64,000 nucleotides of DNA from Owenia fusiformis (Eukaryota): NCBI GenBank assembly GCA_903813345.2, contig CAIIXF020000001.1:29326001-29390000 (forward strand), given 5' to 3'. The notes under the pieces are model-generated. The model was not told the DNA's origin. It saw only the letters and a program-made list of their open reading frames with translations, and did no database searches. The translations under genes were made by a program, and so were the position numbers. Positions 1 to 63,615 of this stretch are shown in pieces. Positions within the stretch are counted from its first letter, which is position 1; the number at the start of each line of letters is the position of its first letter.

Positions 1-449
1 TTCAATAAGCTTAATTTGCAAGTTTCATCAGCAAAGACCTCATTAAACTAAAGCAATAAAACATTAAACAAACCAATCTGTGTCAAAACCAGGCCTAGGT
101 ATCAAATAAATACACCCTTGACTAGAATCATTTATTACTCTGTACAACTCCTCAACATTGAGTCAACAGTATCTCTTATACACCTGCCTCTTGACATATA
201 CCCAATTGCCCTTAAAACATGACATTGTCACAATGTTATTCTTCATTTCACTCTGTATTTGCAAGGTTTTGACACAGACAAGCAATTGTTTATAAATACC
301 ACTTCATCAGCCAATACTTTCCTCGCCTTCTGAGTCAATATTCAAATTTAATACAAGGAGTACAAAAGAAATGAAGGCAGAGAAAGTCTGGCTAGATCTG
401 TGGTATAAACTATAATTCTATAGGTCAGTTACAATGAGAGTTAACATAC

Positions 450-35900: not shown

Positions 35901-38900
35901 TTGCAAGCAAGCACATGCAGGGATGGAAGTGTAAATCTAACTAAATATATAACTATAAAGACAGTTTTGAGGAAATACAGGGTGACACAAAAATGCAATC
36001 CTTGCATCCAATGCAATTTTTGATGACTTCCTCAATTATGATGGAGTCTTCTTGATTTATCAAGGTAGTTTTTATGAAACAGTGGTATAGCATCAATGAC
36101 TTTGCAATCTACAAAAACACTCACGTAAAATAATCCAAAAACAAAAGATGCAATTTTCTGAATTTGGGATTTCTTCTATCTGCCATCATTTGAGTCATTT
36201 CAAGATTACTTTCATACATATTATCAATAATTGTATATACCATAATAACCATTTTATGGAGTAAATTTGTAAATGGTAATGAATGACTTGATTTCTGAAC
36301 TTTTCAAGTGATTTTGAATGAGGACAACTCAAGATGGAAGACATGACTTCTCCTTGATTTCTCATTGATGCCATATACTGTTTTACACATTGACCACTTT
36401 ATCTACACAGCAAAATTCACTAAGAGTGTTAATTAGAGAACTGCATTTTTGTGACACCTTGTATTTTTATATTACTATGTTTTTTCATTAATTGATAATA
36501 TGAATCCCATCTTACAACATGTCACATCAGATTCATCTGATCCATCACTACAGTCTTCTGAACCATCACACATTCCATTAACATCTATACACTCTCCATT
36601 GGTGCATGTGAATTGTTCAGTGGAGCATGTTTTAGGAGCAATTGTAGCTAAAATATGAAGCAAGCACACATGCAACAAATAAGCAAAAAGAGGGTGTTTT
36701 TAAATACCTTTTTGATTCATTTAACTAATAGAGAGAGAAAAGCAAAATTTATCACTAATTCACCTGGCAAGGCAGGGTCAAAGCTATACAAGTGAACTCA
36801 TGTCATGAGTGTAATTTTTTAAAAAAATGTGTCCAACTCACGACAAGTAGTTTCATCTGAGCCATCACTACAGTCTTCCAAATTGTCACATTTCTTTTCT
36901 ATATCAATACATTCCCCATTGCTACATGTAAACTCACTAGCCTTGCATGTGACAGTTGGTGCTACAATATGATCACACATTGGAATGTTGAGGTTTTAAA
37001 AGTATACCTTGTTGTAACACCCTTATAATGTGTAACGAATAAGATATTGTGGGATTTATTTGGGATGGTATAGGGAATATATTTTCATTCTCCTTACGAC
37101 AGATGCTATAATGCTAATTGTAATGTATGTTCACATTAAATCCATCTATTAATATTACAGTATTTCACTAAAAATATGACAAACTTTCACACTTTCACAG
37201 CGAGGGACACAAATGCAAACACAACATGTTCTAAACCACATGACTTCTGACAGACATAAATGCTACAACAATGATCAAAATGCACCTTTATGAAATTCTA
37301 CGAACGTGAAAACACTAAATTATGTAGACATATAGAGTATGTGTGTTTATACAGATATGTGTGTATTAAATATGCAGTTATATGTAGGTTGTCAAAATGC
37401 ACCTTTATGAAATTCTACGAACGTGAAAACACTAAATCATGTAGACATATAGAGTATGTGTGTTTTTACAGATATGTGTGTATTAAATATGCAGTTATAT
37501 GTAGGTTGTCAAAATGCGGCAAACTTCATGATATACGGTACTATGATATGTGGCGTCATTTTTGCAAGTTGACTCACAGCAGTATGATTCATCAGATCCA
37601 TCTTGACAGTCTGCCTGTACACCATCACACTTGAATAACTTATCAATACACTCCCCATCATCACATTGGAACTCATCTGCACCACATTCCCCAGCCTCTG
37701 GACCTGGGGCTACAACAGCATGGGCAACAATGGGGGCATAATAAGCAGGGAGTTAGAGCTTAATACAAAACAGCCATCAATTTGTAAAAGAAAAGCATTT
37801 ACATCTACTGTATACTTATAAAACCAAACGGCATGCAGAAAACGCAAAATATTAACTAAAGGAAGTCTTAAATAAACAGTAAGAATGAGGATATCATTAT
37901 CGGATAACAATGATGTCCCTCATCTATTTTTAATGACTATCATTTAAATGAGGGAGCAGTACTATTGTATAAGATGGGTTTAATCTAGGACTACAGTAAA
38001 GGGTTAACTAACTAACTACTACTATTATTGAAAAATATAAAGAGAAAAAAAATATGAGAGTTATCCTTCCACCTGAAATGTCTTCAACCTTTAAATACTG
38101 CAATACCAGTAGATATGAACTCCTTTATTAAAATAAACAACTATGTAACACAGCCAAGCGTCAGGCGCTAAAAGTGTTAAACTTAATAAGTTTGGTCCTG
38201 GTAGTGTGCACTTACCACATCCAGTTTCATCAGATCCATCTGCACAATCATTGCGTCTATCACATTTCCTTCGAGCATCAATACATGTGCCATCCCCGCA
38301 TCTGAATTCTCTGTCAGTGCAACGAACTGGAGCTAAAGCAAATAAATAAGAATAAACATTTAATTATGGACTATTTGAGGGTTTATTTGAATGTACAAGA
38401 ATCAACATACAAATAAAGTCTAACATACATAAAAGTTAAATAAATCAATCTTACAAATGGCCTATATTGTCATATTCTTCTATTTCGAAAGTGCATGCCC
38501 TCATATATTTTATATGCCCATAAAACTATTGATCTTTTTATATCGACATATCTTCTACAATATCAAACTATTGAATCCCTGACAAATGTTAGTTATATAA
38601 AACTAAATTATAAATTATAATGCAAACAAAAAACAATACCCTAAAATAAGAATTATCATTAGTATAGCTTCCTGAAGGCTTATATATATATATAAGCGAG
38701 ATTCAAAAGATTGTATACATGTATGTCTTTAAACAATAAATGTATGCCCAGTCTTGAAGAGCAAAAAGAAAGAACACAGCAACAGCATGTAGAGTATTTT
38801 CCTATACTTCCAATACGAAATACTTACGACAAGTAGTTTCAGATTCATCTGAACTATCAGAGCAATCTTCTCTCCCGTCACATTTCCTTCTTACATCAAT

Positions 38901-41900: not shown

Positions 41901-44900
41901 GACACTAAAATATAGCAAACCTGTAGCAGTCTAAATAATAATGAACTCTTGAGTATATGATCAAAGGCTAAACTTACAACAAGTAATTTCAGACTCATCT
42001 GAACTATCAGAACAATCTTCTCTCCCGTCACATTTCCTTCTTACATCAATACATTCTCCGTTATCACAAGTAAACTCGTTAGTTGTGCACTCAATTGAAG
42101 CTATAACAATTTGGGAAAACTTAAATAAGCGCACAGGCCAATGAAAATATTACTTCACGCAGGAAAATGCAGAGGCAGCAAATAAAGTCTGTACACCAAC
42201 ATATAGCAAACCTGTAGCAATCTCAATAATAACCAATTCTGAGTAAATAATCAATTTTGGCTAGACTTACGACAAGTAATTTCGGATTCATCTGAACTAT
42301 CAGAGCAATCTTCTCTCCCATCACATTTTCTTCTTACATCAATACATTCTCCATTATCACAAGTAAACTCGTTAGTTGTGCACTCAACTGAAGCTATAAT
42401 TAGGGGAAAAACTTAGATAAGCGCACAGGCCAATAAAATAATACTTCCCACTTATAAATGCAAAGGCACCAATCGCCAACAAGTAATAATACTAGATAGT
42501 AATACTACCTCTACATATTGGAGAGGAAGTATCATATTAATCTCATTAGTGGTGTATTTAACTGATGATATTACTAATTATTTATGTGCAACTTCAACTT
42601 TGACTTACGACAAGTAGTTTCAGATTCATCTGAACCATCAAAACAATCTTCTCTCCCGTCACATTTCCTTCTTACATCAATACATTCTCCATTATCACAT
42701 GTAAACTCGTTAGTTGTGCACTCAACTGAAGCTATAATTAGGGGAAAACTTAGATAAGCGCACAGGCCAATGAAAATAACTTTACAGACATTAATTAATG
42801 CAAAGGCAGCAATAAGCCAATGATTTCGCAAATTAACCATCAGTAAGTAAAACAGTCAGTAAAATAAACTTAAATGTCAAAGGCTGACAGAAAAAACACC
42901 CAGGCTATAGCTGAAAACTTAAATAATAGAAGAGGCAGGATTCTTATGGCTTTCCAATTTGGAAAAGGCCATGATTTAAGACTAAAAATGAAATAATGAA
43001 AACTTAGATAAGCGCACAAGCCAATTAAACATCGCTCAACACTTGTTGATGCAAAGGCAAATTGGACGATACATACACATGTAGAACCAAATTTACATGA
43101 CTGATTAGTGGTAAAATAACATCAACTGATGCAGGAGGTAAAACTTAAGATGGTTAATACAAAAGTAGGTTAAACATTGGTTTGTGCAAAGTCAGGGAAG
43201 TAAACTAATATGACAACAGACCAAAATATATATGATAAAAATGTTTAAGCAAGCTGGACTGAACTTAAAGACAAGTAGTTTCAGATTCATCTGAACTATC
43301 AGAAGAATTGTGTTTCCTGTCACATTTCCTTCTTACATCAATACATCTTCCATTATCACAAGTAAACTCGTTAGTTGTGCACTCAACTGAAACTATAATT
43401 TGGAGAAAACTAGATACATATGTAAGTGCACAGACCAATAAAATACAATTTGAATAACACACACCAATATATTTTACGAGGCATAATAAGCAATGTGAAC
43501 TAGACACAGATTCTAATGAATGGGGAGGAGGAACATAAAAATAAACTACCTTAAACATCATATGGCAAAACATACTGGTAGAAAGTACAAAAGCTGTTCT
43601 AATAATCAGTTTACAAAGGACAATCTAACTAAACATAATAGTATGGTCAGCAAAGGAAAATAAATCAGGAGGGAAAATGCCAATTGGAATAACCAAGGGC
43701 TGACATTACCTAACCCTAGAACATAAACCTACAAGCACATTAATGCAAGGGGAGAGTTTGGAATGCACTTACGACATGTTGCAACAGATTCATCTGATCC
43801 GTCCGAACAGTCCTCTCTATTGTCACATTTCCTTCGGATATCAATGCACTCTCCAGTGCCACAGGTAAATTCATACGCTGTGCACTCTTTTCTTGCTACA
43901 ACCAACCACATTAACAAAATAAACACATGTGTCCTACAGTATGCCAGGTAAAACCACAGCAAGGTGGCCACAAGGAAATTTGAGCTTATATGTACAGGTG
44001 TATCAAAGATTCTTTTTAAAAGAAAAAAATGCAAAAGAGATGACAGAAATAAACCAATATCTAACCTTATAACCTAAAACACTATTTCAGTTGAGAAAGT
44101 AGCTCAAGAATGAGATAAGAAATAGATAGAGACAGAAAGAAGACTATCGAGATTGTATACTAAGCAAACAAGATTACTTGGTAGACAATACTTACGACAA
44201 GTAGTTTCAGATTCATCAGATCCATCAGAGCAATCCTTATATATGTCACATTTCCTTCTTATGTCAATACATTCCCCATTGTCACATGTAAACTCATTAG
44301 CGGTGCATTCTACAGTTGAGACTACAATGTGATATTCAAACATTATTAGCGCACAAGCACATGTTAGACAAAAAGCAAACATACACATTTTAGCAGAGGA
44401 TGTTATTTAACCCCCATTGTCATAAGTAGTAACAGAGTGTATCATAAAGATGTGAGTTAAAAGTGATATTCAAACATCATTAGTTAACAATCAGATGCTA
44501 GACAAACATTTTAACAGCTCTTGACATATATGAAACAACAAAAATAACATTCAATGCAAATATTTTCTTCAAATATGAGTGTTATGAACATTTGGCCCAA
44601 GAGCACCCAACCAACCCTACCAAATCATTATTTTTACAAATATGATTTACACAGGGTTTGATGTTTCTTAGTTTTTGGACTTACGACAAGTTGTTTCAGA
44701 TTCATCTGAACCATCAGTACATTCACTTCTCCCATCACATTTCCTTCTTACATCAATACATTCCCCATTGTCACATGTAAACTCATTAGTGGTACACTCT
44801 ACTTTGACTAAAATGTGATATTCAAACATTGTTAGCGCACAAGCAAGGATCACACATAGTGAATGAAGGAGAATCAGATAGAGAGAGAGAGAGCTGAGCA

Positions 44901-47900
44901 ACTTTTCAATAACTTCAGAATTCGGTTTATATTTGTTTTCACTATTTTGACGAAATTGATATTATATATTTAAGAACTTCCCAATTGAAGAAGAAACCAA
45001 TGGAATTTTTCTGAATAAAAAAATGGGATAATAGAGAATGCTCTGGTTTATCAAAAATGTCGCTCACTGGTTCACTCACTCTATGAAAGATTCTTATTGA
45101 TAAATGATTAAGGAAAGGTTTTTTGCTTATACTATTTTACATCATTAATAGAAATGGCAGAAGTGATATGTTTTAAACAAACTTTCCACAATATTCATTT
45201 GTGGTTTAAACCACCATTTCTATTAATAATCACTGAAAACATGCATTTATTTTAAGGTGTTTCAGTGCCATTGTAGATGAATGAAGGAATTCATGAAAAA
45301 CATCAAATGAATTGAGTGATTCTTAAGTGATAATGTCACTTACTACACATGGCATCATTCTCATCTGAACCATCAGAACAATCTTCTCTCCCGTCACATT
45401 TCCTTCTTACATCAATACATTCCCCACTTCCACATGTAAATTCATTAGTGGTGCACTCGACAGTGACTAAAATGGGGTTTTAAACATTACTAACACTAAG
45501 TTAATAATGGTTTGGAGTTGGAATAGTTTAATAATTTATTCTACACATGAGTAATAAAGATGGTATAAGTTATAAAAGGATGAGTTAAGTACACTACCAA
45601 ACCCTTTACAATGTACTGACACACCAGTAATAGAGACAGTATGTAAGATATGTTCCATTAAAAACAAATCAACAAATGTTATTAATAAGCACCAACCCCC
45701 TTGTAGAGTCAGCTACAGTATGTTCTGATACTTGCCATCAGATAAAAAAATTCACCAAAGGTAAACACCAAAGGTACAGTATAAAATGATTCTTGTGATA
45801 ACGTCACTTACTACATGTGGCATCATTTTCATCTGATCCATCAGAACAATCTTCTCTCCCATCACATTTCCTTCTTACATCAATACATTCCCCACTTCCA
45901 CATGTAAATTCATTAGTGGTGCACTCTACTGTGACTAAAATGTGATATTCAAACATGATTAGCGCACAAGCAAGGAGTGGTTTGGACAAGATGTTAGCAA
46001 GAATCAAGAGTCAGTATTTGGATACATTGATAGTTGTGAGCTTTCTTTTCAAAATTGGCATTTTTTCATCAAAGTAACCACATACCAATGCACTTTCAGC
46101 TTTGGATTTTCAGTTATACCAATCCTACTTTCCATGTTATTGAAACCCAAACCCTAAGAGATAATCTCTATCTTGTGTTGAAGCAGAGCTCTATAACACA
46201 TAAGCTTGATGTAGTCAAATTTCCAACTTCAAAGCTAAAAACCAATGGGGAAATGGTTCACTATGAAAACTTCTATTTTTGAAAAGATAACAAAAAGGCC
46301 ATCAATGTATCTTGCTACAGACTAGTGAATAATAGATAGACAACTCATTGTCAATCATTTATACATGTTATAAGCAGCGCCTGGTGCAGACAAACTTTTC
46401 CAGAGATTATATCTCTTGCAAAGCATGCTGTCAACCAATTAAGATCCTGCCCTATTTCAAGATGGTTGCCTTTTCACCGCTTTTCTCAGTTAAGACATGT
46501 TTTGATTCTATGTAGATTTTGCATGAATGTTCAAATATCTAATAAAATAAAATCAAGCAATGTGGAGGCAATCTTGAAAAACAAATTATTTTATATAAAA
46601 GGGTTTGACGACAGGTTCTCTGTGTTATTAGTTAGGGTGCACCATGTGTGGGAGAAATAATGTCAGTTCCAAGATATCAAATAGGTTGCTAGATAAAGAT
46701 GAGCCAAAAACTGTGCAGCACTTTCTATATGTGACATTACTACGTATGCAATTTTTCTGAAATTAAAGCTGATGCACATATTTTTGAACCCATAATAACC
46801 AGAAAAGTTTATTTGATAATTCTCATATAGTTTAGAGATATCAACATGAATCCCTGAGGCAAATTCTAATGTAAGACAGTCAAGATTCCCAAATACACCA
46901 GCACTTACTACATGTTGCATCATTTTCATCTGATCCATCAGAACAATCTTCTCTCCCATCACATTTCCTTCTTACATCAATACATTCCCCATTACCACAT
47001 GTAAACTGATTAGCTGTGCATTCTACAGGGCTGACTACAATGTGATATTCAAATGTAATTAGCGCACAAGCGAATTAGCCAAACAATTCCCTTGCTTTTG
47101 ATTGTTTTATGGAAACTGACATCCAGAGTTAATAATATAGTTCAAATAGTTATGTTAGTTATATATAGTATCAGTGAGGCATCTCATGAAAAAATTGTGT
47201 TCAGAATATGGTATATTTTTTAAAATATTATTTTATATTTTGAATCCTGATATACAATTTTTAAGAGATGTCTCATTCAGAAAATATTACAAATACAAAG
47301 CGTAAAAGATCAAAGCTGAATGCTTGAAAAACTGACTTCCAGGACAGATAGTAAGTCAGTGTTTAATTCATACATTAAGATCTTTCTGGAGAACACAAAC
47401 CACATCAATAAAATAATGTACTCACGACAAGTAGCTGCAGATTCATCAGATCCATCGCTGCAGTCTGATCTTCCATCGCATTTACGCCTAACATCTATAC
47501 ACTCTTTATTGTCACAGGTGAACTCAAATGAAGTGCACTCAACTGGAGCTGCAATTAAAGAAAGATGATATTTACTTCTTTAGTAAAATCATGTCAAAGG
47601 TCTATATATTGCTCATGAATTTATTTTCATTATTTTATGTGTTTAACTGTATGTGATATATTTCATGTGACATAATATTACTGTATATATAAGTTACAGA
47701 TAAGAGACAACATATAAAAGATATTACATATACATGTAATTTAACAATTACATATAATTCATATAATGAATATAACTGAAAGAACGTTGGACCATCGATA
47801 TAAAACAGTGATCCAAAACATTAGACATAACTTACAACAAGCAGCTTCAGTTTCATCTGAACCATCTGTGCAATCATTATACTGATCACATACTCGTCTA

Positions 47901-50900: not shown

Positions 50901-53900
50901 TTAAAATAGAAGAAGCCTAAAGATATTTTAACTCTGAAATAAACCTCTGAATAAGACTTACGGCATGTAGTGGGTGTTTCATCAGATCCATCGGAACAAT
51001 CTGCATACCTATCACATTTCCTTCTTACATCTATGCATTCCCCATTGGAACATGTGAACTCATAATCAGCCTTACACTTACTTGTAATAGGAGTTGTAGG
51101 TACAGGAGTTGTAGGTACAGGAGTTGTAGGTACAGGAGTTGTAGGGACAGAATTTGTGATGGGGGCTAAACATAATATATAAATTTTCTTATACTTAGTA
51201 AAATTATGTTTGAGGGACACACTACAAAAGCAGTACAAACACATATTTGTCAAATGTATATGCACGACTTTTTAAGTTCACATGATCAATGGATTATAAT
51301 TTCTTTTAATTTAACTCAGAAAATGCTTAACAGCCAACTGAAACTTACAACAGAGAGTTTCATTTTCATCAGAGCCGTCTTTACAATCAGCGTATGCATC
51401 ACATTTCAACCTAGCATCTATGCACTGTCCATCACCACAACGGAACTGTGTGCTAGTACAGTTAGTAAGGCCAGGTGCTACATATAACACAACACAAATA
51501 AGAATACCACAGACAAATAGACAATGCCATCGGGGGATATCACAATAATCAACAACAAACATCAGGAGTTCATATTCATTTGAAATATAAAATCTTGCAA
51601 ATACCCGCATATTAAATCCAATCCAATGCACATCTGATTTTGACCAGTGATATAGATGTTCCAGGGACAACGAACCAAACCCCAATAAACCATACACAAA
51701 ATCAGCCCAAGTGGTCTGAGTACTTACGGCATGTTATCTCAGATTCGTCTGAGTTATCAGTACAGTCACTAACTCTATTACATTTCAGGCTAATATCAAT
51801 ACACTCTCCATTGTCACATTTAAACTGATTGTCAGTACACACATTAGGATTTGGGGCTAAAATAAGGATAGATAAATTATGTTAATTGAAGGTTTATTAC
51901 GGAACCACAGACCAAAAAGTATTGGTAACACACATAGAAATCAAGAATTTCACAATACAACTGGTCATAAGGAAACAAATCCTAACATCCCAAACTAGGA
52001 TCTAACATGAACAGACATGGTAATTAAGTAGACATTAGATTATTAACATTAGACATTGAGATTATACACAGGTCATTTCTGGGAGAGGAATGAGGCACAC
52101 ACAGATTTAGATGGTACACCCAAGGGGATTTGACTTACAACATTCAGATTCATCAGATCCATCAATGCAGTTGGGTATACCATTGCACTTTTCTGTCCCT
52201 GGGATACATGTACCATCTCCACAACGATGCTCACTGGGATCACATGCAGCTAGAAATGTGAGGTTTTAAACAAAAAATAAGCTTATAAGCGAAAAAAATG
52301 GAAAAAGCTAAAATCATGGGAATGAAAAACCACTTAAGTTCTTAACTTTTCTCTGAAAGAATAATTTCATTTAATTATTTTGTGAATACAAAAACTTACA
52401 ACACAAAGCTTTTGATTCATCAGAACCATCTGCACAATCCCCTTCTAGGCCATCACATTTGAATGCAATATCTATACACTCACCATCATTACAACGGAAC
52501 TTCTCTGGACCACATGCATCTACAGCTACAACATTCATATGTAAATAGTTTGAGAATTTTGTATCATTGTGTATGTGTGAACTGTGATATAATTTTATGT
52601 TCATGTGTTTGTGTGGTGATGCTATGACGATGATGCACATTCTCCATGTTTATATACGAAGCATGATGCTATTAGATTTTATCAAAACTTACAACAAACT
52701 TCCTCTAATTCATCTGAGCCATCGCTACAGTCTTCCTTTTGATTACATTTATCTTCTACATCAATGCACTCTCCACTTTCACATGTAAACTGATTTTCGG
52801 AGCATGTTACAGAAGCTAAAACAGAATTGATGGAATAAAATGGAAAAGAACAAATAATATGTATCTGTGTGTAGATTAATTTTGATAGACATTCAGAGTT
52901 TTGTCTGAAATGATTAAAAATTGAAAAAAAGTTAATCACCATTCCATATCAACAGATGGTATGAAGTAAACAACACCACTGTATTGAACATTATATTACA
53001 AAGAATTATTTAGGGTTATCAACATGGGGAACATGTTTTATTAAAGAATTTGATTTTTTCGCTTCAATTATATGTTTCATCACATTTTCCTTCTACTCTA
53101 TTGTCACATGTTAACTCATTAGTGGTACATGTAACAGCTGTGGCTGAAACATTGATGCCAAGTATTATGAGGATTTGAATTTGTATTGGTTATCGTGCCA
53201 TTGAAAATATGTGTATATGTATGTCACACAAAATCAGGGGGAAAACTGTATTATATTAACAAAACAACACTTATATTAGGAAAATCTCAAATTCAATTCC
53301 AATTTGTGTTCAAAACTTACAACAAATATATTCAGATTCATCAGAACCATCAGAACAGTCTCCTTTCCCATCACATGATAAGCTACCATCTATACATTCA
53401 CCATTAGCACATGTGAATTCACCAGCAGTACAAGTTATTGGAGCTGAAATGTGGTGATGGGACATTTTAATACAACGATCCACCAACTACATAATGATGA
53501 GGAGTGTATATCTATTGGTACAACCATTAAAATGTTTAAATAGAGCAATTTCTAATATATCTACTCAATAAAAACCTTATCAAAGTTTTTCATATACATT
53601 GTTGATATGTGCATTTCCTTGTCCTGCAGTATGTGTCTAAGAATATGTGTTTTGATAAGCATGCAATGGGAATTTATCTTGATATACCTGATTATCTCTA
53701 GGTAAGGAGCCATATTTTATCCTTGTCCTCTCTTGTGAATTATTACCAACTCAATATTATACGAGTCACGTGGATATCCTAATTTAACATAAGCAGTTGT
53801 CACATAATACTTGGGTGCTAAAACATGGCAGTCAGTATGTTAGAGACATGAAATGTTACAGAAATGAGGTGCTGAATAGTATAAAGAACAAAACTACATT

Positions 53901-56900
53901 TGATGATATCTTGCATATGATATTCCAATTCATTTTCACTTAATAACTCGACAATTCCACACATAAAATTAAAAAAAAAACAATAGGAATGAGATAACAA
54001 TATGTGATAATAACTTTGTTGAGGGAAAAATGAAAATACTTTGTTGCAAACTGGACCCAAAGACAAAGAACCAGATCTGCCCTATGCAAGAAAGTCATCA
54101 AATATACTTCATATAATGATTGGTATCATCTCGAATAATATTTGATTAACAGAAAAAGAATTCAGAATTCAATGAGTATTGACTAAAAAATGAAAATATA
54201 TTGACATTAATTGTTATTTAATGAAGGAGGACAATATATCCGATCGGATAGAATGAGTCTCAGTTTCCATATCCTGCAAATGCATGCTGTAGAAATACCC
54301 CATTACCAAAGGAATTGACCATGAAAACTTACAGCATGTTGAAACAGCTTCATCAGACCCATCCATACATTCTATGGTCATATCACATTTAAACATTATG
54401 TGTATGCACTCCCCATTGTCACAACGAAACTGTGTATCACTACATTCTATAAAATGTACAATGATCTTATCATTGCTTCATACAATGGTGATGGAACATA
54501 CAGTCTAAAGTGTTTTAATATTCTCTCTTGAAATGAGTCCACATTTAAACATTATATGAATGCACTTGCCATTATCATAATGAAACTGTGTATCACTACA
54601 TTCTATAATATGTACAATGATCTGAGAGCTTCATCAATGGTAATGGAACATGGAGTTTAAAGTGTTTTAAAATTCTCTTTTGAACCGAGTCTAAGGCAAG
54701 TAAAGCTGAGGTGCTTATATAAGAGGAAACATACTGCAAGTAGTTTCCGTATCTTCATCTGATCCATCTACACAGTCCTTTAACAGGTCACATTTAAAGT
54801 ATATATTAATGCACTCCCCACTCCCACACTGGAACTCATTCTCTGTACACTCTCTCTTAGCTAGAATGGATCAATTCAAAAGACAATCATCCCATTGTTT
54901 TCTATCTGTTATGAGATTAAGCCATCTTTATAGCTCACAGTTACTATATTTCTGCATGTACAGGGTGATCAAGAAGAAATGAGAAGTGCTGTCATCAATG
55001 GAAAAGTAATACAATATTTACTAAATATTTACATACATCATATAAACATCAACTCGATCAAGATGTTTCAAAAAAGAATTTTCTGAGTGGTACACTTAAA
55101 CATTCTCGAGACAAGCTTAGTATAGGTGTTTCAAACTATAATTACAATATGAAACACTAATAATGCCAAGATACTCGCGTATATCACACATGCATTCCCC
55201 GAAGTATTAGATTGTTCGAAAAGAGAAAAGAGCACTTTTGCATTTACTTATCTCTCACCCTATACATATACTATTCTGTATCATATTTCCATCTGATTAA
55301 GAAGGAGAAAAAGAACAGTGGGTGAAGGTCATTATTAACATTGGGGACAGAACTATATTATACCACTATATTATTCCACATGTTAACAACATACGATTTG
55401 ATTAAGGCGACTATTACTATCTAGTATTATAGTTCTTAACACAAACCAAACTTACGACATATTGTATTTGCTTCATCTGAGCCATCCATACAGTTTTCCT
55501 CACCATTACATTTAAACTGTAAATCTATACATTCACCATCATCACAGTGAAACATATCAGCACTACAGCCAGAGGACACTAAACAAAATGATGTGAAATA
55601 TGAAATACATATTTTGAATGGGTCAACAGATTATGTCTTTAAGACAATGTATTTTGCAGTGATGTAATGAAATTTTCAAAGGAGAACATGATGAGGGTTT
55701 ACAGAAAAAACTTACTACAATAGGTTTCTAGTTCATCTGAACCATCGCTGCAGTCTTTTCGACCATCACATTTCTTGTTGAGACCAACACACTGACCATT
55801 ATCACATTCAAACTGAACAGCAGTGCATTTTTCCAAAGTACTCGCTAAAATTATTGTTGAGAATAACCAATAAAAGCAAAAAGAAATGGAATTGATATTG
55901 GTTCTGAATATGTAAATATTACAATAGACTTCAAAACATGGCGATTTTTATCTCCAGATGTTCAAATTGTTGAAAACTTACGACAAGTTATTTCGGACTC
56001 ATCTGAGCCATCACTACAGTCATCATTACTATCACATTTCTTAATACCATCAATACACTCTCCATTGCTACATGTAAACTGATCAGCAGAGCATTCTACA
56101 GTTTTTGGGGCTGAAATATCCATGTGAAAAAATAAAAAACAATATTTATTTTTCAAATAATACGATATTCTCAACATTATCACTTTTGCTTCTTGTTTTC
56201 CATGTTTTGTGAATAATCCAGTTTCTGATTTTTATTAGACTACCAAGTTCTTCAAATTTTCCCTAGTTATGCTATATGTTAGTTTTCTCTGGCTTTCTCT
56301 GGCCTGCTCAGTATATATGATTAAAGCTTACAACATGTAGATGGAGATTCATCTGAACCATCTGTGCAATCCTTATACTTGTCACATTTCCTTCTATTGT
56401 CTATACAATTTCCATTGTCACATCGAAACTCATACCAACTGCAGTTGCGGGCAGTTTCTATAATATAATGGTTGAGGTATGCAGTAAAACACAGAACATT
56501 TTGATTAGTTTAACAATACGACTGCTTGTACCTTTTAGAATGAAGCAGTTTTACTGAATGCACTATTCAATGTTATTGTGATATTATTATAATGCCAGTT
56601 TTGTAATATATGTAATTGTCTGGAGCTTAAGAGACTTACGACAGTTGGCTTGTAGTTCATCTGAACCATCTTGACAATCTACATAACGATCACATTTCCT
56701 TCTCTTGTCTATACATTTGCCATCATCGCAGCGAAACTCAAAGAAAGTACAATTACGAGGAGCTACAATGTTCAATGTTCCAATCATTACGTTAACAGCA
56801 AACAGACCGAAACTAAGGTATCAATCCAATTCAATTCATTTTATAGAATTAGGAATTTCATGAAAATCAATACACATTTGTTCACGCTTCACATGTATTT

Positions 56901-59900
56901 CAAAATATGTTTGATTGTGAGAAATCATTCTCTCATAAAAAGAACTTACGGCAGGTAATAACTGATTCATCTGATCCATCATAACAATCAGAATAAAGAT
57001 CACACTTAAATCTACTGTCAATGCAAAGTGAACCATCATCACATTGGAACTCAGTGGGGCCACACATAGATGTCACTGCTACAATATAACACCAGTTGAA
57101 TATTAGGTACAAAGGTCCATTCATATCCAATCTAGTGCCTCTCTATTTATACTCTTTATATTGGATATAGTCGGATAAATCAAACCAGATGTATCATGTC
57201 CAGTCTCTGGAACACTGGTGCCTGAGATTTTAGTAATGACAATCATAGTTACATTAAACATTAGGGCATACATTGTACAGTACAGATGCACCTGTCCAAT
57301 GCAGCAGCTATTTGGCACACATGAGTAGAGTGAATATCTTATCTGGCTTTGATCATCTTATGACTTAGGCTTTAAATAGATCAAGATTATGCAAAGACTT
57401 ACGACATATAGTTTCTAATTCATCCGACCCATCACTACAGTCTTTTACATCATCACACTTCTTTTTATTATCAATACAGTCACCATTATCACATGTGAAC
57501 TCTGTAGAGCTACAACTTGACACTAAAATATCAAATTGTACCATGTTTAAGCATGTGACACAACATCAAGCATGTTTCAAAGCTTTTAACAGGATTTCAT
57601 TTTGTTGAGACAAATGAAACTCCAAATGACATAATGACATGAAATACTCCATTACGTTTGTTCATCTCTGAATTGGGTGTTCAATGGAACTTCTTATTAA
57701 AAAAAGTTTGTAAAGAAACATGTAGTATGGACACTTGATTGAGCTCATGAATGAAGGAATATGGTTTGATAGAACTGAATGACTTACGACATGTCATTTC
57801 AGATTCATCTGAGCCATCACTACAATCTTTGGAATTATCACAGGTTAATGCAAGTTTTATGCATTCACCATTAGCACATCTGAATTCACTCACATCGCAT
57901 GTTACAGGAGCTGCAATATCAAATAGATGCAGCAAAATCAGAGAGAAAATAGAGAATAAATTCCTACTCCACGGGAATCATATTCATCCCATATCCATGA
58001 TTGACAATGCCACAATATCTCATTATGAAAGACAATTGTGGATAATTTTTAAAATTGAGTAAATCTTTTTTTAAACATAATATCAGACATCTTCTGACAG
58101 TTTTGGATCTATAGCATAACTGAACTTACTACATTCTTCAGATTCATCTGATCCATCAGTACAATCATTCGTACCATCACATTTCTTCTCGATATCTATG
58201 CAGTCACCGTTAGAACAAGTAAATGTGTTGCTTCCACAAACTTTCGGCGCTAAAATGTGGGAGCACCATAAATCACAATGATAAGTAATGATGATAAGTG
58301 ATTGATGGGACCAAAGGTTTTGAATGAATCAAAACTAAAAGAACTGTCAATTTTATCATTTAAAGATTTAAATCCTTAATCCAAAACCAGATGATAACTT
58401 ACAGCATGTTGCCTTTGCTTCATCTGATCCATCTTTACAATCACTCCAACCATCACATTTACGTTCAATACTAATACACTTTCCAGTGCCACAGCGAAAC
58501 TCTTTCTCAGTGCATTCCAATAAAGCTAGAATATGAAGCCAAATAGATTGCACAAGAATGCTCAAAATGTGTATCAGGGATTGATAAAAAAAGGTCTAAG
58601 GGTTTATTATGAACAAATAGAAACAATACCATGGAGTAATAATGTATACAGGGTTATCTAAATTCATTGTCGGATTGGAATCCTATACTTTAATACAGGT
58701 CATATATAAACATGTAGAGGGCTGGTATTTATGTTAATTTTTAATTCAGATGTTTAAATTGGTTATTGGAATAATAAGGGGACTCACGACAAGTTTTTTC
58801 AGATTCATCTGAACCATCAGTACAATCCTTTCCTCCATCACATTTCAATGCAATGTTAATGCACTCCCCTGTCTCACATCTAAACTGTTTATCTGTGCAA
58901 GTCCCTCTCACTAAAACACGTGGCATGTAGTTGTATACATATTTTGGGGGATTTTTGGATTTTGGAATGACGATATGTTTTGTCATATAGTTGTGATTTT
59001 TGCATTGGTTATCATGTAATAATGTTGAGAGCAGGCCTTATGGCTTGATTTCATTGTGTAATCTTTTCATACAATGATGCCCTATATGGTTTCACATTTA
59101 GATAGGCCAGCAACCTATGGTAACTATATGACTATATTATATATTCAATTCAAATATGCCAAATATATTTATTTATTATGCAACTCACAACAAGAAGTCA
59201 GAGATTCATCTGAGCCATCTGGACAATCTACAGCTTGATCACATTTCCAACTTATGTCTATACAGCTACCATCTCCACACTCGAACTGTTTACTTGTGCA
59301 ATTTTGAAGGGCTAGGGAAATTACAAAGGTTTTAAAATAACAACATGACATTGTTTCTTTGATGTTTTCTAATGTCTGTGTTATAAAAAGTTTTATCTGT
59401 TACCTAATTCATCATTCAATTTTTTGAATCGCCTAGATTATACTTCACTGAATTAATGGTTTCAATGAGATTTCCTTCAATGGGATATGAGTTTCTGATT
59501 CGGCTATGACTTATCAATTTGATGAGTTGTGTCAATGTTATTCTAATATGCTCTAAACTTACGACAATTTGCCTCAGATTCATCAGAGCCATCAAAACAT
59601 TCCTTAACCCCATCACACAACCATTCAATATTAATACAATCCCCATCATCACACCTGAACTGCTTGTCAGTACATTCAACGGGAGCTATAATGTGGATTA
59701 AAGTTCATTAATCAACTTCTGCTCCACGCATCCTGATGTAGGGATTCTACATGTAATTCTTCTTAAAAACCGTTTGACAATGTGTAAAATTAAAGCTTTA
59801 AATTGTGAAGTTCTTGAATAAAGCGGAGAATGTGTATGTTAATTACTTACGACAAGTTACATCAGATTCATCTGAAGCATCTTTACAATCGGGAGAACCA

Positions 59901-62900
59901 TCACATTTCCATGCTAACTCAATACATCCACCATCATCACATGTAAACATTTCATTGCCACATTTGTTTGTTGCTACAGTAGGAAGTATTTAACAAATTA
60001 AATGAATATCTTCTTTAGAATAACTTTAGTTGCGCCATTCTCACGTTACCCATCATAGTTTGAACAATATATGTATGTTCTATATTGCAGATTGATATTA
60101 AGATTTGTGTACCATATGGATCTGGTTTTTACCTTAGTCTTTATGGATTAAAACTGTTTTGATGTTAATGTTCTTCAATTCATGTTTGTACTTGTATTTT
60201 TGAGTACTGTTTATATGGTAAACTTACGACAGATAATATCATATTCATCTGAGCCATCTTTGCAATCTTCTGTTCCATCACATTTCTTAGTCAAATCAAC
60301 ACAATTCCCATCAAAACATCGGAAATCATTATCAGTACATTCAACTGGGGCTAGAAAGTGAAAATCCAAATTGATATCCCTTTATGATTATAATAATTAT
60401 TTGTTCAATTTAACATAAAGAATAATGTTTAATACTAACAGATTGTGGTCAACAAACTTACGACATGTTGTTTCAGATTCATCTGAACCATCAGAGCAAT
60501 CATCATTACCATCACATTTCACTTTAGCATCAATACACTTGCCATTGTCACATGTAAAGGTATTAACAGGACACGTAATTGGGGCTAAAAGATTGAAATA
60601 AATGAGTATTTTAAGGGTGTTTTGTCAACCCTTCACAAACGTTTTATACTAGCCCTAATGTTACATAAATCAACCTCAAATTGTATACCAAAGGATTGCA
60701 ATCTAGTTCATTTAAAAATGGATGATTCAGTGAATGAAATGCATGGCGACAAGATAGCAAGAATTGCACTACAGGGGACTTACGACACAAATCTTTTGCT
60801 TCATCAGACCCATCCCCACAATCATCATTGCCGTCACACTTTCTGAGAACATCAACACAAGCCCCATTGCCACAAGTGAACTCAATATCAGTACAATCAG
60901 TGGTGGGTGCTACAATATCATTCCAATTCATTATAGCACATTCAGGAGGGGTTTCAGCTGGTAAATGGAGACGAGACACCACTCAATAAGTGTCATGTTA
61001 TTATAATAACAGAAGTGACTAATACAAAAACAACAGGATCAAGTTGGCCGAATGGCTGTTGAATCCAAATGAGTTAAGAGATGAATCAGTGTAAATATTA
61101 GAGTTAACAACTTACGTTGTTCACAAATTTCTGGTGCTTCATCTGATCCATCTTGACAATCCTTTGCCTTATCACATCTCCAACTAAGTTCAATGCACTC
61201 CCCATTTTCACATTGAAACTGAGTCTCAGTGCACACTAAATGTGATATCAAGAAAGAAAATAATGAGGGTATATCCTTGACTAATTTGTCAAGTCTGGAC
61301 TAGTATTAAAAATGTAATGTTGTAAGCTGCATGTCTGTGTTTCTAAAGCTCTGGTTTATGAAGAACTCTTTCTAAAGTTGAGGTTTACGATTTTTCATAG
61401 GTGCGATGAAACTTTTAAAAACCTGACTAACATAATTATAAGCACATTCAAACAATAGATCTGTCTTCTACCACTGATGCTAAAATAACTCTAACTTACT
61501 ACAATTTGACTCCCATTCATCAGAACCATCTCTGCAGTCCTCTAGACGGTCACATTTATAATCAACATTAATACATTCCCCATTATTGCAACGAAACTCA
61601 TCTTCTACACACGCAGCTATGTCTAAAATGTTCATGTTTCTGACTTAGATATTGAATATTTAACCTTAATGAATCCTTACGCTCTAAATCTAAAACAGGT
61701 GAATTAAAATCCAACCTACTTATAAAGGAATTTTAAAATATATAAGGAATATGTACTTCTTTGGATGTGCATTTTCTTAATTCTAAATCACTCAATGTAA
61801 TGTATGTATTTCATTTTGTAATTCCTGACTTACTACAAGTTTCGGCTGATTCATCAGAACCATCGCTACAATCCACATTATCATTGCACTTCTTAGCGAT
61901 GTTTATACATTCTCCATTATCACAACGGAAATCAGAATCACCAGTACAAGCTTTAAAACCGAATGATATGTTCTTCAGAATGTGAGTATAAATATCAATA
62001 AAACAAATCGATGTTCACTTCCATGGTTTTTCTTAATAATCAATTGGGTAATATGTTATATTTGTAACAACCAATCAGTATTAAGAGTCGAATAAAACTT
62101 ACGACAATTTTCTTCCAATTCATCTGAGCCATCGAGACAGTATTCTATACCATCACATTTATAACTACCATCTATACACTCCCCATCATTACAGCGGAAT
62201 TCACCAACAGCACAAACAATAGGTGCTAAAATATTATATCTCAAATATTGTAAAAACAACCAAAACCACACATTATATTGGTGTACGTGTCAAATATTCC
62301 ACGAAGTTCTTCTTGTATTATGTAATGTTATAATGAAATTTAAAATGGTTAAACTTGTTTTTGAAATATCTTCTTGAGGAGTTGTTGACAGATAACTTAG
62401 TTTAAATGAGGTGTAGTATTGTGTTGGAGAAAATTCTGAATTAGACCTAAACTGACCTTCAATTGTTTGCGGTTGTATGTATGCATGTGGTATGTATGTA
62501 TGTATGTGTATTGGATGTATCAGTCTAGTATCAATAAAGCATTGCTTATTAGGTTGTGGTCCATCTTGGAACATATCCCGTGACGAATTGCACTTCACTG
62601 TTGTGACAGTTGTGCAATTTTTATTGAACAATTGTTCAATAAAATACCTAAATATAAAGTATAAATGAAAAGTATACTTACGACAGTCTGCTCCAGTTTC
62701 GTCTGAACCGTCACTACAGTCAACAAAACGATCACATTTCTTAGCTATATCGACACACTGTTTGTTTTCACATTGAAACTCACTAGAACTACACTCTGAC
62801 TCTACCGGTGTTGCTAAAATATCATGCAGCATAAAATATTGATTCCAGATCAATGACTATGTGATCAAAATACTAAAGTCAACATATAATTTTTTTGTCA

Positions 62901-63615
62901 TTGATGTGACATCAGTGTTTGCAAAAAGAAAGCATAAAGGAAAAGCTTATGAATCTGACAAAGAGATTTAAACAATATATGTTTTGACAAAAAACAGGGT
63001 CAAAAGATAAAAAATAAAATAATAGAAGATGATTGTGTAATATATTTTTCTCTTTGTCAAATTAGCAGGTACGGACAATACTTTACAAACATAGAAACTT
63101 ATACTACGGAATATGTTGGTGTCAATACTGAATGGACAAAATCCGATGGTGACCACATTTTCATTTAAAGTTTGTATCAGTTCTAGTAAGCAATCCTGAC
63201 AAAATCTTTTATTGAACATTTTTGATAAAATCTAAGATAATTCAGATCCTATTTGATGCTGTCACATCATTTGAAGTTTTGCTGGCTGATTTGGAAATAT
63301 TAAATAACTAAATGGGCAACAGTCACCATCAGATAAAAGGGAAATAAACTATTGCTAAGCATTGGTTTATACTATACTAAACTTAAACTAAATAAAGCGA
63401 TCTATACTACATGTGATTGACTACAACTATGCCAAAAGAGCATGCATCCATAACAAAAATTAAAAATTTTAAAAATTCTTGGAAAAACTTACGACAAGTA
63501 GCTTCAAATTCATCTGAACCATCAGAACAGTCCTCACGGCCATCACACTTTCTCCTTACATCAATGCAGTCACCATTACCACATTTGAACTCATTATCAG
63601 TGCATGCAACTGTAA
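450..63615 (-). CDS. HSPG2: Perlecan / basement membrane heparan sulfate proteoglycan core protein, partial multi-exon gene (both ends outside the window)
   Basis: Over 100 GT-AG exons on the minus strand join in frame to give the perlecan order LDLa array - Ig - 3 LDLa - Ig - 3x(laminin B + laminin EGF) - 12 Ig - LamG - EGF - EGF - LamG. The perlecan-typical Ig motif [15 protein letters not shown] lies in exon 33794-33987. No start codon, signal peptide, SEA domain or stop codon was seen in the window. Confidence 0.95.
3324..19993 (-). CDS. HSPG2: Perlecan domain IV: 12 Ig (I-set) modules
   Basis: Exons, grouped by module: 19727-19993; 19259-19353+14857-15034; 14354-14629; 13872-14015+13550-13690; 13111-13256+12634-12751; 12318-12441+11949-12106; 10014-10292; 9706-9828+9306-9485; 8810-9070; 8434-8596+8147-8244; 4502-4588+4104-4283; 3619-3751+3324-3451. 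Most show the Ig motifs C-x-A-x-G-x-P-x-P-x-I-x-W and D-x-G-x-Y-x-C-x-A-x-N. Confidence 0.92.
6239..6283 (-). CDS. Candidate 45-nt cassette exon ([15 protein letters not shown]) between Ig10 and Ig11
   Basis: Minus strand reads ttcatctttgtgtttag|TAGCAAGATACAAACGTGATATAAACGTGATGCTCTCTGATCAGG|gtaagt: pyrimidine tract, consensus donor, 3n length, phase 1-1 like the flanking exons and no stop. A tandem NAGNAG acceptor gives a 42-nt form. Confidence 0.6.
10326..11597. mobile_element. Non-autonomous Helentron/HINE (DINE-1-like) element carrying a central satellite array
   Basis: Subterminal motif ATGTCACCAC at 10347-10356; central tandem array; GACGCC(G)-type microsatellite at ~11483-11545; terminal hairpin TATGTCACCAC-ttttg-GTGGTGACATA at 11568-11594 whose arm repeats the subterminal motif. 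Confidence 0.75.
10365..11430. repeat. Tandem array of ~125-bp monomers (~8 copies)
   Basis: The unit gaaggtcaaatgtcaaatctaaagtcagatttgaacttctgagaacatgtagatgattttgaaaaaaa...gacctttttgaccttgagaaggtcatt recurs near 10521, 10646, 10770, 10927, 11054, 11191 and 11360, with small internal duplications. Confidence 0.95.
16221..16797. mobile_element. Possible old, degraded HINE-like element
   Basis: Starts aactagagg, contains aaaatggtggc/ggccattttg-type motifs, and ends with a decayed GATG-type microsatellite and a hairpin remnant around aactttgtt. Identified by pattern resemblance only. Confidence 0.35.
17395..18020. repeat. Degenerate minisatellite, ~33-38-bp units
   Basis: The core tgaatatgtaaat(g/a)attgtgcc, followed by tctttttatt or ttttaatata, recurs roughly 17-18 times. 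Confidence 0.9.
18049..18060 (-). CDS. Candidate 12-nt microexon (TTSE) inside Ig2
   Basis: gtttctttttcag|ACCACATCTGAG|gtaaca; strong pyrimidine tract and phase 0-0. Confidence 0.5.
18231..18236 (-). promoter_or_regulatory. UGCAUG (Rbfox-type) intronic splicing element
   Basis: Minus-strand TGCATG lies ~20 nt downstream of the 21-nt candidate microexon donor. A single hexamer can occur by chance. Confidence 0.35.
18256..18276 (-). CDS. Candidate 21-nt microexon (AGGRGAG) inside Ig2
   Basis: tattctggttttag|GCTGGCGGTAGAGGGGCAGGA|gtaagt; phase 0-0 matches the flanking exons, and it is a GC-rich island in an AT-rich intron. Confidence 0.6.
20157..33074 (-). CDS. HSPG2: Perlecan domain III: three laminin-B (L4) globules with laminin-type EGF repeats
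   Basis: Exons 32950-33074, 32336-32509 ([13 protein letters not shown]), 31948-32127, 31376-31532, 31051-31157, 30682-30795, 30332-30459, 29858-30000, 29362-29585, 29038-29226 ([13 protein letters not shown]), 28807-28899, 28570-28653, 27622-27740, 27233-27344, 26860-26973, 26474-26601, 26112-26198, 25809-25953, 25442-25573, 24992-25180 ([12 protein letters not shown]), 24578-24673, 24253-24336, 21612-21839, 21225-21347, 20804-20931, 20482-20568, 20157-20224. The VE-x-C-x-C-P-x-G-Y-x-G-L-S-C motif occurs three times. Confidence 0.92.
27830..28495. mobile_element. Palindrome-rich non-autonomous DNA element remnant(s), family not determined
   Basis: CpG-richer than the surrounding intron; ~42-bp imperfect inverted arms at 28025-28067 / 28096-28137; perfect 14-bp inverted repeat acaaatattgaatg / cattcaatatttgt at 28393-28406 / 28480-28493. 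Confidence 0.5.
33281..35566 (-). CDS. HSPG2: Perlecan domain II core: Ig, three LDLa repeats, Ig
   Basis: Ig exons 35442-35566 and 34992-35139; exon 34514-34774 with two LDLa ([13 protein letters not shown]...; [32 protein letters not shown]); exon 34165-34296 (one LDLa, [16 protein letters not shown]); Ig exons 33794-33987 and 33281-33374 ([14 protein letters not shown]). Confidence 0.92.
35831..35895 (-). pseudogene. Decayed LDLa pseudo-exon
   Basis: tgaatccaatcttataacaagtcacatcagattcatc matches the 3' end of exon 36516 (tgaatcccatcttacaacatgtcacatcagattcatc), but the donor is GT->AT and most of the module is deleted. Confidence 0.7.
35978..36461. mobile_element. Tc1/mariner-type MITE
   Basis: TIRs CAGGGTGACACAAAAATGCA (35978-35997) and TGCATTTTTGTGACACCTTG (36442-36461) match 18/20; TA flanks both sides; further inverted segments lie inside. 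Confidence 0.75.
36516..38332 (-). CDS. HSPG2: LDLa exon array, 3'-most divergent block (4 exons)
   Basis: Exons 36516-36647, 36842-36961, 37578-37709 and 38216-38332 each encode one six-Cys LDLa module ending DGSDE and are phase 1-1. The last joins in phase to the Ig exon at 35566 (T|CT GTC AGG). Confidence 0.85.
37276..37517. repeat. Near-perfect 117-bp tandem duplication in an intron
   Basis: caaaatgcacctttatgaaattctacgaacg...gtaggttgt starts at 37276 and again at 37393, with 2 differences seen. Confidence 0.92.
38828..42731 (-). CDS. HSPG2: LDLa exon array, near-identical [18 protein letters not shown] block (12 exons of 123 nt)
   Basis: Exons 38828-38950, 39121-39243, 39410-39532, 39823-39945, 40107-40229, 40556-40678, 40840-40962, 41284-41406, 41692-41814, 41978-42100, 42271-42393 and 42609-42731, with gtaag donors, TAG acceptors and alignable flanking introns. 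Confidence 0.85.
43270..43392 (-). pseudogene. LDLa pseudo-exon with destroyed donor
   Basis: Copy of the TTNEF exon. Plus-strand cttacg is replaced by cttaaag (no GT), and CDGREDC has become CDRKHNS, losing Cys5 and acidic residues. Confidence 0.8.
43773..47548 (-). CDS. HSPG2: LDLa exon array, middle block (7 exons)
   Basis: Exons 43773-43895, 44196-44321, 44685-44807, 45344-45466, 45812-45934, 46909-47034 and 47426-47548 encode CIDVRRKCD-type modules. Confidence 0.85.
47836..51165 (-). CDS. HSPG2: LDLa exon array, 4x two-exon unit (mucin-like stalk+LDLa exon, then a [11 protein letters not shown] LDLa exon)
   Basis: Mucin+LDLa exons 48246-48569, 49187-49525, 50128-50391 and 50962-51165; PRKC exons 47836-47958, 48770-48892, 49724-49846 and 50549-50671. 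Confidence 0.85.
48372..48566 (-). repeat. Coding 15-bp VNTR (PV[P/V]TT mucin-like repeat); paralogous tracts at ~49313-49522, ~50253-50388 and ~51087-51160
   Basis: Plus-strand unit acaggagttgtaggg and variants; translates in the exon frame as [15 protein letters not shown]. Confidence 0.92.
51349..63615 (-). CDS. HSPG2: LDLa exon array, older divergent block (31 exons; continues past the window edge)
   Basis: Exons 51349-51477, 51728-51856, 52139-52249, 52400-52525, 52693-52815, 53321-53443, 54333-54446, 54735-54860, 55456-55578, 55716-55844, 55982-56110, 56332-56457, 56640-56762, 56950-57078, 57403-57522, 57788-57910, 58130-58249, 58403-58525, 58788-58910, 59189-59311, 59563-59685, 59851-59973, 60228-60350, 60462-60584, 60784-60909, 61116-61235, 61500-61622, 61834-61950, 62103-62225, 62682-62813, 63493-63615. 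All are 3n in length, phase 1-1, with one LDLa each. Confidence 0.85.
53077..53143 (-). pseudogene. Truncated LDLa pseudo-exon
   Basis: The acceptor and [14 protein letters not shown] are retained, followed by an internal deletion; there is no DGSDE and no donor. Confidence 0.7.
54540..54602 (-). pseudogene. Partial tandem duplicate of LDLa exon 54333-54446
   Basis: A ~155-bp local duplication (54385-54539 vs 54540-54690) copies the acceptor and 5' half of the exon only, with a Cys->Tyr change and no donor. Confidence 0.75.

Follow-up and report, generated by a model that had tools for sequence, protein, structure and literature searches.

Why should a perlecan gene keep 62 exons of one kind when its annotated mRNA takes only six of them? 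The question arises in a stretch of 64,000 nucleotides (nt) from the annelid Owenia fusiformis (NCBI GenBank assembly GCA_903813345.2, contig CAIIXF020000001.1, positions 29,326,001 to 29,390,000 of the forward strand), called the window here, with all positions counted from its first letter. The minus strand of the window holds the 5' two-thirds of a gene that, to judge from its sequence, is perlecan (HSPG2/Trol/UNC-52), a core basement-membrane proteoglycan. In this gene we find an array of 62 intact exons at 36516-63615, each of which codes for a single LDLa module, and 56 of them are absent from the annotated mRNAs. We consider these 56 to be facultative cassette exons of Owenia perlecan, with a probability of roughly 0.6. 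The array itself is confirmed to be real, large, mostly unannotated and made of symmetric exons of the cassette type.

LDLa modules were detected with a six-cysteine pattern scan, followed by a profile built from the modules of the window itself and run over all six reading frames, with hits in the window counted above 20 bits. The minus strand gave 67 such matches, 3 of them in 34166-34739 and 64 in 36517-63604, and on the plus strand the best score of the same six-frame search was 7.1 bits, with none above it. The 64 matches of the array are 62 intact exons plus two decayed copies, and the count of 62 obtained by hand in the original prediction thus proved to be exact. All of the intact exons also match PF00057 of Pfam at E ≤ 0.001. 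The modules have the features by which LDLa is recognized, i.e., about 40 residues, six cysteines and a D-x-S-D-E calcium cage. The first five cysteines and the D, S, D and E of the cage are invariant in 62/62 exons, and the sixth cysteine is present in at least 90% of the rows of the 62-module alignment, three rows being clipped by the profile.

The exon structure is equally regular. Each of the 62 has an in-phase AG acceptor and a GT donor one base past the last cysteine codon, is in phase 1-1 on both sides and has a length divisible by three, as had been predicted. The donors are GTAAGT (54 exons), GTGAGT (5), GTAAGC (1), GTATGT (1) and GTAAGA (1). Lengths fall between 111 and 132 nt in 57 exons; four longer ones, of 204-339 nt, additionally encode a Thr/Pro-rich linker, and a single length of 174 nt is an artefact of a crude choice of acceptor. 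As only ~14% of the 123-nt windows on the array strand are free of stop codons, 62 intact exons lie far beyond chance. The array was expected to be open at the window edge, and it is: upstream of exon 63493-63615, the annotated protein continues with 11 additional LDLa modules and a SEA domain, which brings the Owenia locus to at least 76 LDLa-coding modules (62 + 11 + 3).

The identity of the gene follows from the annotated Owenia protein CAH1774180.1 ("unnamed protein product, partial [Owenia fusiformis]"), of 4,162 amino acids (aa). This protein and its sister isoform CAH1774179.1 (4,170 aa) align in order, at 94-100% identity, with 45 exon segments of the window, from 47549 down to 445. 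In a Pfam scan, CAH1774180.1 was found to contain a SEA domain, 20 LDLa modules, Ig, three laminin B, laminin EGF, three laminin G and EGF domains, and it is this perlecan set, together with the exon match, that bears out the assignment of the gene. Database searches led to the same family. Among 1.84 billion representative proteins searched with a profile of the 62 modules, a Penaeus perlecan with 60 matched stretches ranked first, and the laminin-type region of that perlecan, used as a query, returned 1850 proteins, with the Owenia protein among the matches listed. The best 120 of these 1850 matches are perlecan, trol or HSPG2 by name, or unnamed hypothetical proteins. Annotated molluscan perlecans show 42-49% identity over the body exons; the host, for which a mollusc had been proposed, is the annelid O. 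fusiformis.

Six of the 62 array exons in the window are taken by the annotated protein, in the order 63494 > 47427 > 38220 > 37582 > 36843 > 36517 > Ig 35442. Passed over are a block of 38 exons (62813-47836) and a block of 18 (47022-38828), 56 exons in all, and this is so in both annotated Owenia proteins. In the annotated protein, exon 36516-36647, with which the array ends, is spliced in frame to the Ig exon 35442-35566, and the array is N-terminal to the Ig/LDLa/laminin body, in agreement with the original prediction. The absence of the 56 exons from the annotated mRNA is a property of the gene models, whose underlying reads were not seen. The array can be laid out as follows.

36516..63615, minus strand: the whole array in the window, 62 intact single-LDLa exons and two decayed copies, continuing past the window end.
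63493..63615, minus strand: first array exon in the window, used in the annotated protein (residues ~615-655).
51349..62813, minus strand: block A, old part, 30 unique LDLa exons, none in the annotated protein.
54541..54600, minus strand: decayed half-module, a pseudo-exon copied from the neighbouring exon 54334-54444.
47836..51165, minus strand: block A, repeated part, a two-exon unit of ~935 bp present four times (8 exons), none in the annotated protein.
48246..48569, minus strand: long exon with a TTPVP-type Thr/Pro-rich linker (15-nt tandem repeat) and one LDLa module.
49187-49525, 50128-50391 and 50962-51165, minus strand: sister long linker exons.
47426..47548, minus strand: LDLa exon that separates the two skipped blocks and is taken by the annotated protein.
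38828..47022, minus strand: block B, 18 intact LDLa exons, none in the annotated protein.
43271..43381, minus strand: pseudo-exon of the young family, with Cys5 lost and a stop in place of the GT donor.
38216..38332, minus strand: LDLa exon used in the annotated protein.
37578..37709, minus strand: LDLa exon in the annotated protein, with its acceptor 23 nt before Cys1, matching the linker APGPEAGE.
36842..36961, minus strand: LDLa exon used in the annotated protein.
36516..36647, minus strand: last array exon, in the annotated protein, which splices to the Ig exon.

The two blocks differ in age. Each of the old exons of block A is at most 78% nt-identical to any other array exon, and their introns (~90-870 nt) have no detectable similarity to one another. 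In the repeated part of this block, the copies of the ~935-bp unit align at 85-93% across exons and introns, and each two-exon unit contains one linker-bearing exon. The 15-nt repeats of the four linker exons (48373-48564, 49314-49518, 50255-50386 and 51089-51157) vary in number from one sister to the next and code for TTPVP-type linkers of ~27-72 residues, which are mucin-like and probably O-glycosylated. In block B, 17 of the 18 exons make up a single young "[13 protein letters not shown]" family with 80-100% nt identity, whose members were duplicated together with their introns in units of ~290 and ~733 bp. The last four array exons are again unique. The array would thus have grown by repeated unequal duplication of exon-plus-intron units, older duplications leaving the 30 unique exons with unrelated introns and recent ones giving the fourfold two-exon unit and the family of 17 near-copies. 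In the intron between exons 37578-37709 and 36842-36961 there is also a 117-bp tandem repeat (37275-37517; 2.1 copies, 98% identical).

The skipped exons bear clear marks of selection on the protein. Frame, cysteines, calcium cage and both splice sites are kept in 30 of 31 old copies, the exception being the half-module at 54541-54600. The ratio of nonsynonymous to synonymous differences (pN/pS) is 0.25 among the 17 young-family copies and 0.21 and 0.07 for the two exons of the ~935-bp unit; for 24 old exons that share one length it amounts to 0.45, pS being saturated there (0.67), and their third codon positions differ the most (0.48 versus 0.31-0.32). With conserved cysteines and cage and a pN/pS of 0.07-0.45, the skipped exons are selected coding exons and not debris.

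At one position the modules divide into chemical classes. In LDLR-type modules, an aromatic residue two positions before Cys4 forms the pocket for a ligand lysine. This residue is aromatic in 12 of the 62 modules, Arg or Lys in 39, mostly within a CID-x-RRKCD motif, and of another kind in 11. All but one of the 12 modules with an aromatic pocket (Trp, Tyr or Phe) are located in the old block, at 52400-62225. The LDLa fold appears to be kept, then, and the binding chemistry of most modules is probably different.

Several observations weigh against facultative use of the 56 exons and have to be set beside this. No transcript, protein or read junction with any of them was found, in searches that were shallow: their best identity to any of 424 fetched proteins was 84%, a young-family exon searched against longer proteins only gave five matches (best identity 68%, none from Owenia), and a profile of the 30 old exons returned, in a protein search, a list filled by LRP- and perlecan-type proteins. 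As no mRNA with skipped exons was seen, it is selection that speaks for their use. The splice sites are a further difficulty. GTAAGT donors are present in 52 of the 56 skipped exons versus 2 of the 6 used ones (Fisher P = 0.0017), and the introns of the skipped exons are short (~90-300 nt); near-perfect donors with short introns are what is expected of efficiently included exons, not of weak cassettes. Given that the donors of skipped exons are better than those of used exons, repression, alternative promoters and incomplete annotation all come into consideration. As to the last of these, the annotation, in the account given of it, was driven by RNA-seq and drew on STAR, StringTie, Trinity/GMAP, Portcullis, Mikado, hinted Augustus and PASA (PMC9977687). 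The same account describes a repeat-soft-masked genome and short reads (PMC9977687), with which repetitive exons could have been missed. On both sides of the long skips the sequences are unique, and RNA-seq junctions most likely underlie these joins, to which repeat masking may also have contributed.

Raw reads add to these difficulties, and they also bear on the alternatives. Three RNA runs of the same species label (X21, X22 and X23), of which ~6-12% each was sampled (~12% in the case of X23), were aligned to 33701-53700, together with the DNA run X1. Only X23 covers the gene body, with a depth of ~3.7 over the exons of 33791-35034 and five reads across the splice joint 34296>34514. In this run the four annotated 3' array exons, within 36369-38369, have a depth of 0.53, i.e., 14% of that of the body, block B does not exceed 0.39, and the portion of block A at 47836-53443 has zero aligned bases. 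Expressed in read-equivalents, the 3' array exons received 1.8 versus ~12 expected at body depth, block B 5.6 versus ~52, and the block A portion 0 versus ~58. This suggests that most X23 transcripts are without the whole array, through skipping of all of it or through a downstream start or promoter; the ORFs at 35567-36516 contain no convincing signal peptide for an alternative first exon. Since even the annotated 3' array exons have 14% of the depth of the body, X23 is not dominated by the annotated isoform either. The X23 evidence is thin: it comes from a single run, the body received ~15 read-equivalents, and alignment may be poorer for reads that span several short exons. Over 33701-53700, none of the runs X21, X22 and X23 yielded a splice joint within the array that met the listing threshold.

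X21 and X22 contribute next to nothing to the gene, the bulk of their reads falling on two short repeats. At the intronic positions 35281-35314 and 34092-34122 they pile up 19-29 and 5-13 reads, with unlike flanks on both sides and, in nearly all of them, a 1-base deletion at 35295; the probable source of these reads is an abundant transcript, or a repeat, that lies elsewhere and has ~30 nt in common with these positions. In the DNA run X1, every one of the 30 bins of 33701-53700 is covered by contigs, with 149 of 215 pieces at 99% identity or more. One X1 contig skips 152 bases at 35995-36148, within the intron that separates the array from the Ig exon, which is probably an indel polymorphism.

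The most direct alternative is that all of the at least 62 exons are spliced constitutively into a giant rod, which would give a perlecan of ~6,600-6,700 aa and would make the 4,162-aa model incomplete because of short reads and masking. The near-perfect donors of the skipped exons and their short introns are what such a rod would predict, gene models with 45-68 LDLa modules exist in Ridgeia, Penaeus and Macrobrachium, and soft masking and short reads did go into the annotation. However, the drop in depth from the body to both blocks argues against a constitutive giant rod in the X23 sample. Moreover, the annotated junctions 63494>47427 and 47427>38220 link unique sequences, which is hard to obtain by repeat collapse, and exons 63494 and 47427, themselves 80-84% like the young family, would not have escaped masking. 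We regard the rod as rather unlikely. The original prediction had left the choice between an LDLa rod of more than 2500 aa and a repertoire of isoforms; six exons used out of 62, and an X23 array depth of 0-14% of the body, favour exon skipping and count against the rod in its constitutive form. A different way to account for the absence of transcripts would be that the 56 exons are an evolutionary surplus, by-products of unequal crossing-over that were never spliced, or are no longer spliced, and are slowly decaying. Two copies have indeed decayed already, and birth-and-death dynamics in the array are clear. Against this stand the 30 old exons, which at 78% nt identity or less and with unrelated introns retain frame, cysteines, cage and both splice sites, a pN/pS well below 1 in all exon classes, and the small share of 123-nt windows that would be stop-free by chance. 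Such a surplus is unlikely.

The layout of two clusters of homologous exons of equal length, each bracketed by kept exons, is also reminiscent of Dscam, and a mutually exclusive choice had been predicted, in which competing RNA pairings would admit one exon, or a fixed few, per block and mRNA. This did not hold up, and we consider it very improbable. Neither block contributes an exon to the annotated mRNA, and phase 1-1 exons with lengths divisible by three impose no frame constraint that would enforce exclusivity. Docking or selector elements shared between introns were not found either: in a BLAST comparison among the 61 introns, which would miss elements shorter than ~20 nt, those of the old block gave no plus-strand match and a single minus-strand match. 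There remains the assembly, in which a shorter array could have been over-expanded or mis-joined. Tandem repeats are error-prone, the exon cores at 40108 and 40841 are identical, and the summed contig depth of X1 fluctuates between 10 and 212 along 38.4-42.4 kb. But 36 exons are unique, the repeated units diverge by 6-18%, introns included, which far exceeds assembly error, and X1 contigs span all bins of the aligned region, with the qualification that X1 may be the assembled sample and so not independent. An artefact is scarcely credible.

Facultative cassette use of the 56 exons is the reading that we retain. The array is preceded, upstream of the window, by the SEA domain with the first LDLa modules and followed by the Ig/LDLa/laminin body, each exon contributing one calcium-cage LDLa module, and as all of the exons are symmetric, any subset can be spliced in frame. 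The annotated mRNAs keep six "anchor" exons and skip the blocks of 38 and 18, and we infer that the skipped exons are included in minor transcripts specific to tissues or stages. Variable inclusion would change the length of the N-terminal LDLa region and its surface chemistry, with aromatic or basic pockets and mucin-like linkers. A stronger form of the idea, which we put forward as a tentative and rather doubtful possibility, is that the skipped blocks are regulated regions between constitutive anchors, from which cell types or stages splice in different subsets to produce a large perlecan repertoire. If so, perlecans would vary in length, in the type of ligand pocket (aromatic, basic or other) and in mucin-like spacers. 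This would be a matrix counterpart of the Dscam/protocadherin idea, by free combination and not by mutual exclusion, and the independently expanded perlecan arrays of arthropods would be the same device.

Downstream of the array, the remainder of the gene in the window has the domain order of a perlecan body.

35442..35566, minus strand: first Ig exon 3' of the array, continuing in exon 34993-35142.
34166..34775, minus strand: three canonical LDLa modules, two in exon 34515-34775 and one in 34166-34296.
33791-33988, minus strand: Ig exon following the canonical LDLa modules.
445..33374, minus strand: rest of the perlecan body, with laminin B/EGF exons, Ig array and laminin G/EGF exons.

Within this body, the sole difference between CAH1774180.1 and CAH1774179.1 is an insert of eight residues, TTSEVTLN, after residue 2488, in the domain IV Ig region. 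It points to an event between 19256 and 15034, either a micro-exon of 24 nt that is used alternatively or an alternative splice site.

How exceptional is the array? LDLa numbers in perlecan are 4 in vertebrates and ~22 in Drosophila Trol, the textbook range being 3-4, or ~22 in flies. In this respect the Owenia array is, as had been predicted, far above the familiar range. The databases give a different picture: with the window-derived profile, at E ≤ 0.001 per module, we counted the following numbers of LDLa modules in other perlecans.

Macrobrachium rosenbergii (XP_066985998.1): 68.
Penaeus, two loci: 66 (Penaeus japonicus, XP_042860326.1) and 60 (XP_047486482.1, for which hmmsearch likewise counts 60 stretches).
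Procambarus: 54.
Portunus: 51.
Cherax: 51.
Tachypleus, "trol": 49.
Trichonephila: 48.
Ridgeia, an annelid: 45.
Nymphon: 40.
Haliotis: 37.
Molluscs, 11 annotated proteins: 18-37.

Set against the textbook species, the claim therefore stands; set against the databases it does not, as decapods, chelicerates and another annelid have 45-68 modules in their annotated perlecans. In molluscs the annotated numbers are 18-37. The kind of locus is already present in public annotation, where it is apparently undiscussed, and Owenia is an unusually large and largely unannotated further case, at or above the top of the known LDLa range if all of its modules are used. Literature searches, the coverage of which left out subscription journals, found no paper on giant LDLa arrays in perlecan.

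Taken with this database survey, the Owenia locus indicates that protostome perlecans can carry 45-70 or more LDLa modules, encoded in Owenia by freely combinable exons. It also reveals a gap in the annotation of a model annelid, from which 56 intact and selected exons are missing, and the exact exon coordinates of the perlecan array of O. fusiformis are now given. If these exons prove to be used in a regulated manner, perlecan would have at its N-terminal end a tunable spacer or ligand-binding platform, and the locus would be a clean system in which to see how tandem exon duplication creates isoform diversity in a matrix protein.

The closest parallels are the RefSeq perlecans of decapods, which belong to the same gene family, have a very large LDLa region and, in their isoforms, show the behaviour proposed here for cassettes. 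The 14 RefSeq isoforms of the Penaeus locus XP_047486482.1 (among isoforms X15-X31) contain 44-60 LDLa modules. Relative to the longest isoform, their gaps are mostly of ~37-145 aa, about the size of modules, and fall within residues 417-1671, with a few smaller gaps and one of 80 aa at 3149-3228. As these isoforms vary by modules, module-wise variation of a giant LDLa region is already in the databases for arthropod perlecans. Unlike Owenia, the decapods are of a different phylum, and their models include most modules, whereas the Owenia model includes 6 of the 62 in the window; the decapod models are computational predictions. Among annelids, the perlecan-like protein KAK2193775.1 of Ridgeia piscesae (5,202 aa) resembles Owenia in its 45 N-terminal LDLa modules, at residues 14-2087. 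A module-by-module comparison of the Owenia array with the Ridgeia and Haliotis arrays yielded no collinear orthology, the best Ridgeia matches being 49-66% identical and most of them falling on a single Ridgeia module. The expansions thus look lineage-specific, or else the orthology signal is too weak to tell.

Domain II of Drosophila Trol and vertebrate HSPG2 is arranged like that of Owenia, with LDLa followed by Ig ahead of the laminin-type domain III (PMC4398486), but with far fewer LDLa modules. The perlecan gene of Trichoplax has three LDLa modules and one Ig, and for the species treated in the available part of that account of perlecan evolution, only 3-4 LDLa modules are mentioned (PMC4398486). 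With respect to splicing, the nearest precedent is found in Caenorhabditis elegans, where unc-52 resembles the proposed Owenia scheme in that exons are skipped within a perlecan gene. The exons that vary in unc-52 are few and code for Ig modules of domain IV, in contrast to the dozens of LDLa exons considered here. Several functional isoforms of unc-52 are described as products of regulated exon skipping, with MEC-8, SMU-1/2, HRP-2 and CCAR-1 as regulators (PMC6266596). Dscam1, finally, shares with the Owenia array the tandemly duplicated clusters of homologous exons between kept exons; it differs from it in that the annotated Owenia mRNA takes no exon from either cluster, and in that the symmetric exons of Owenia are usable in any number.

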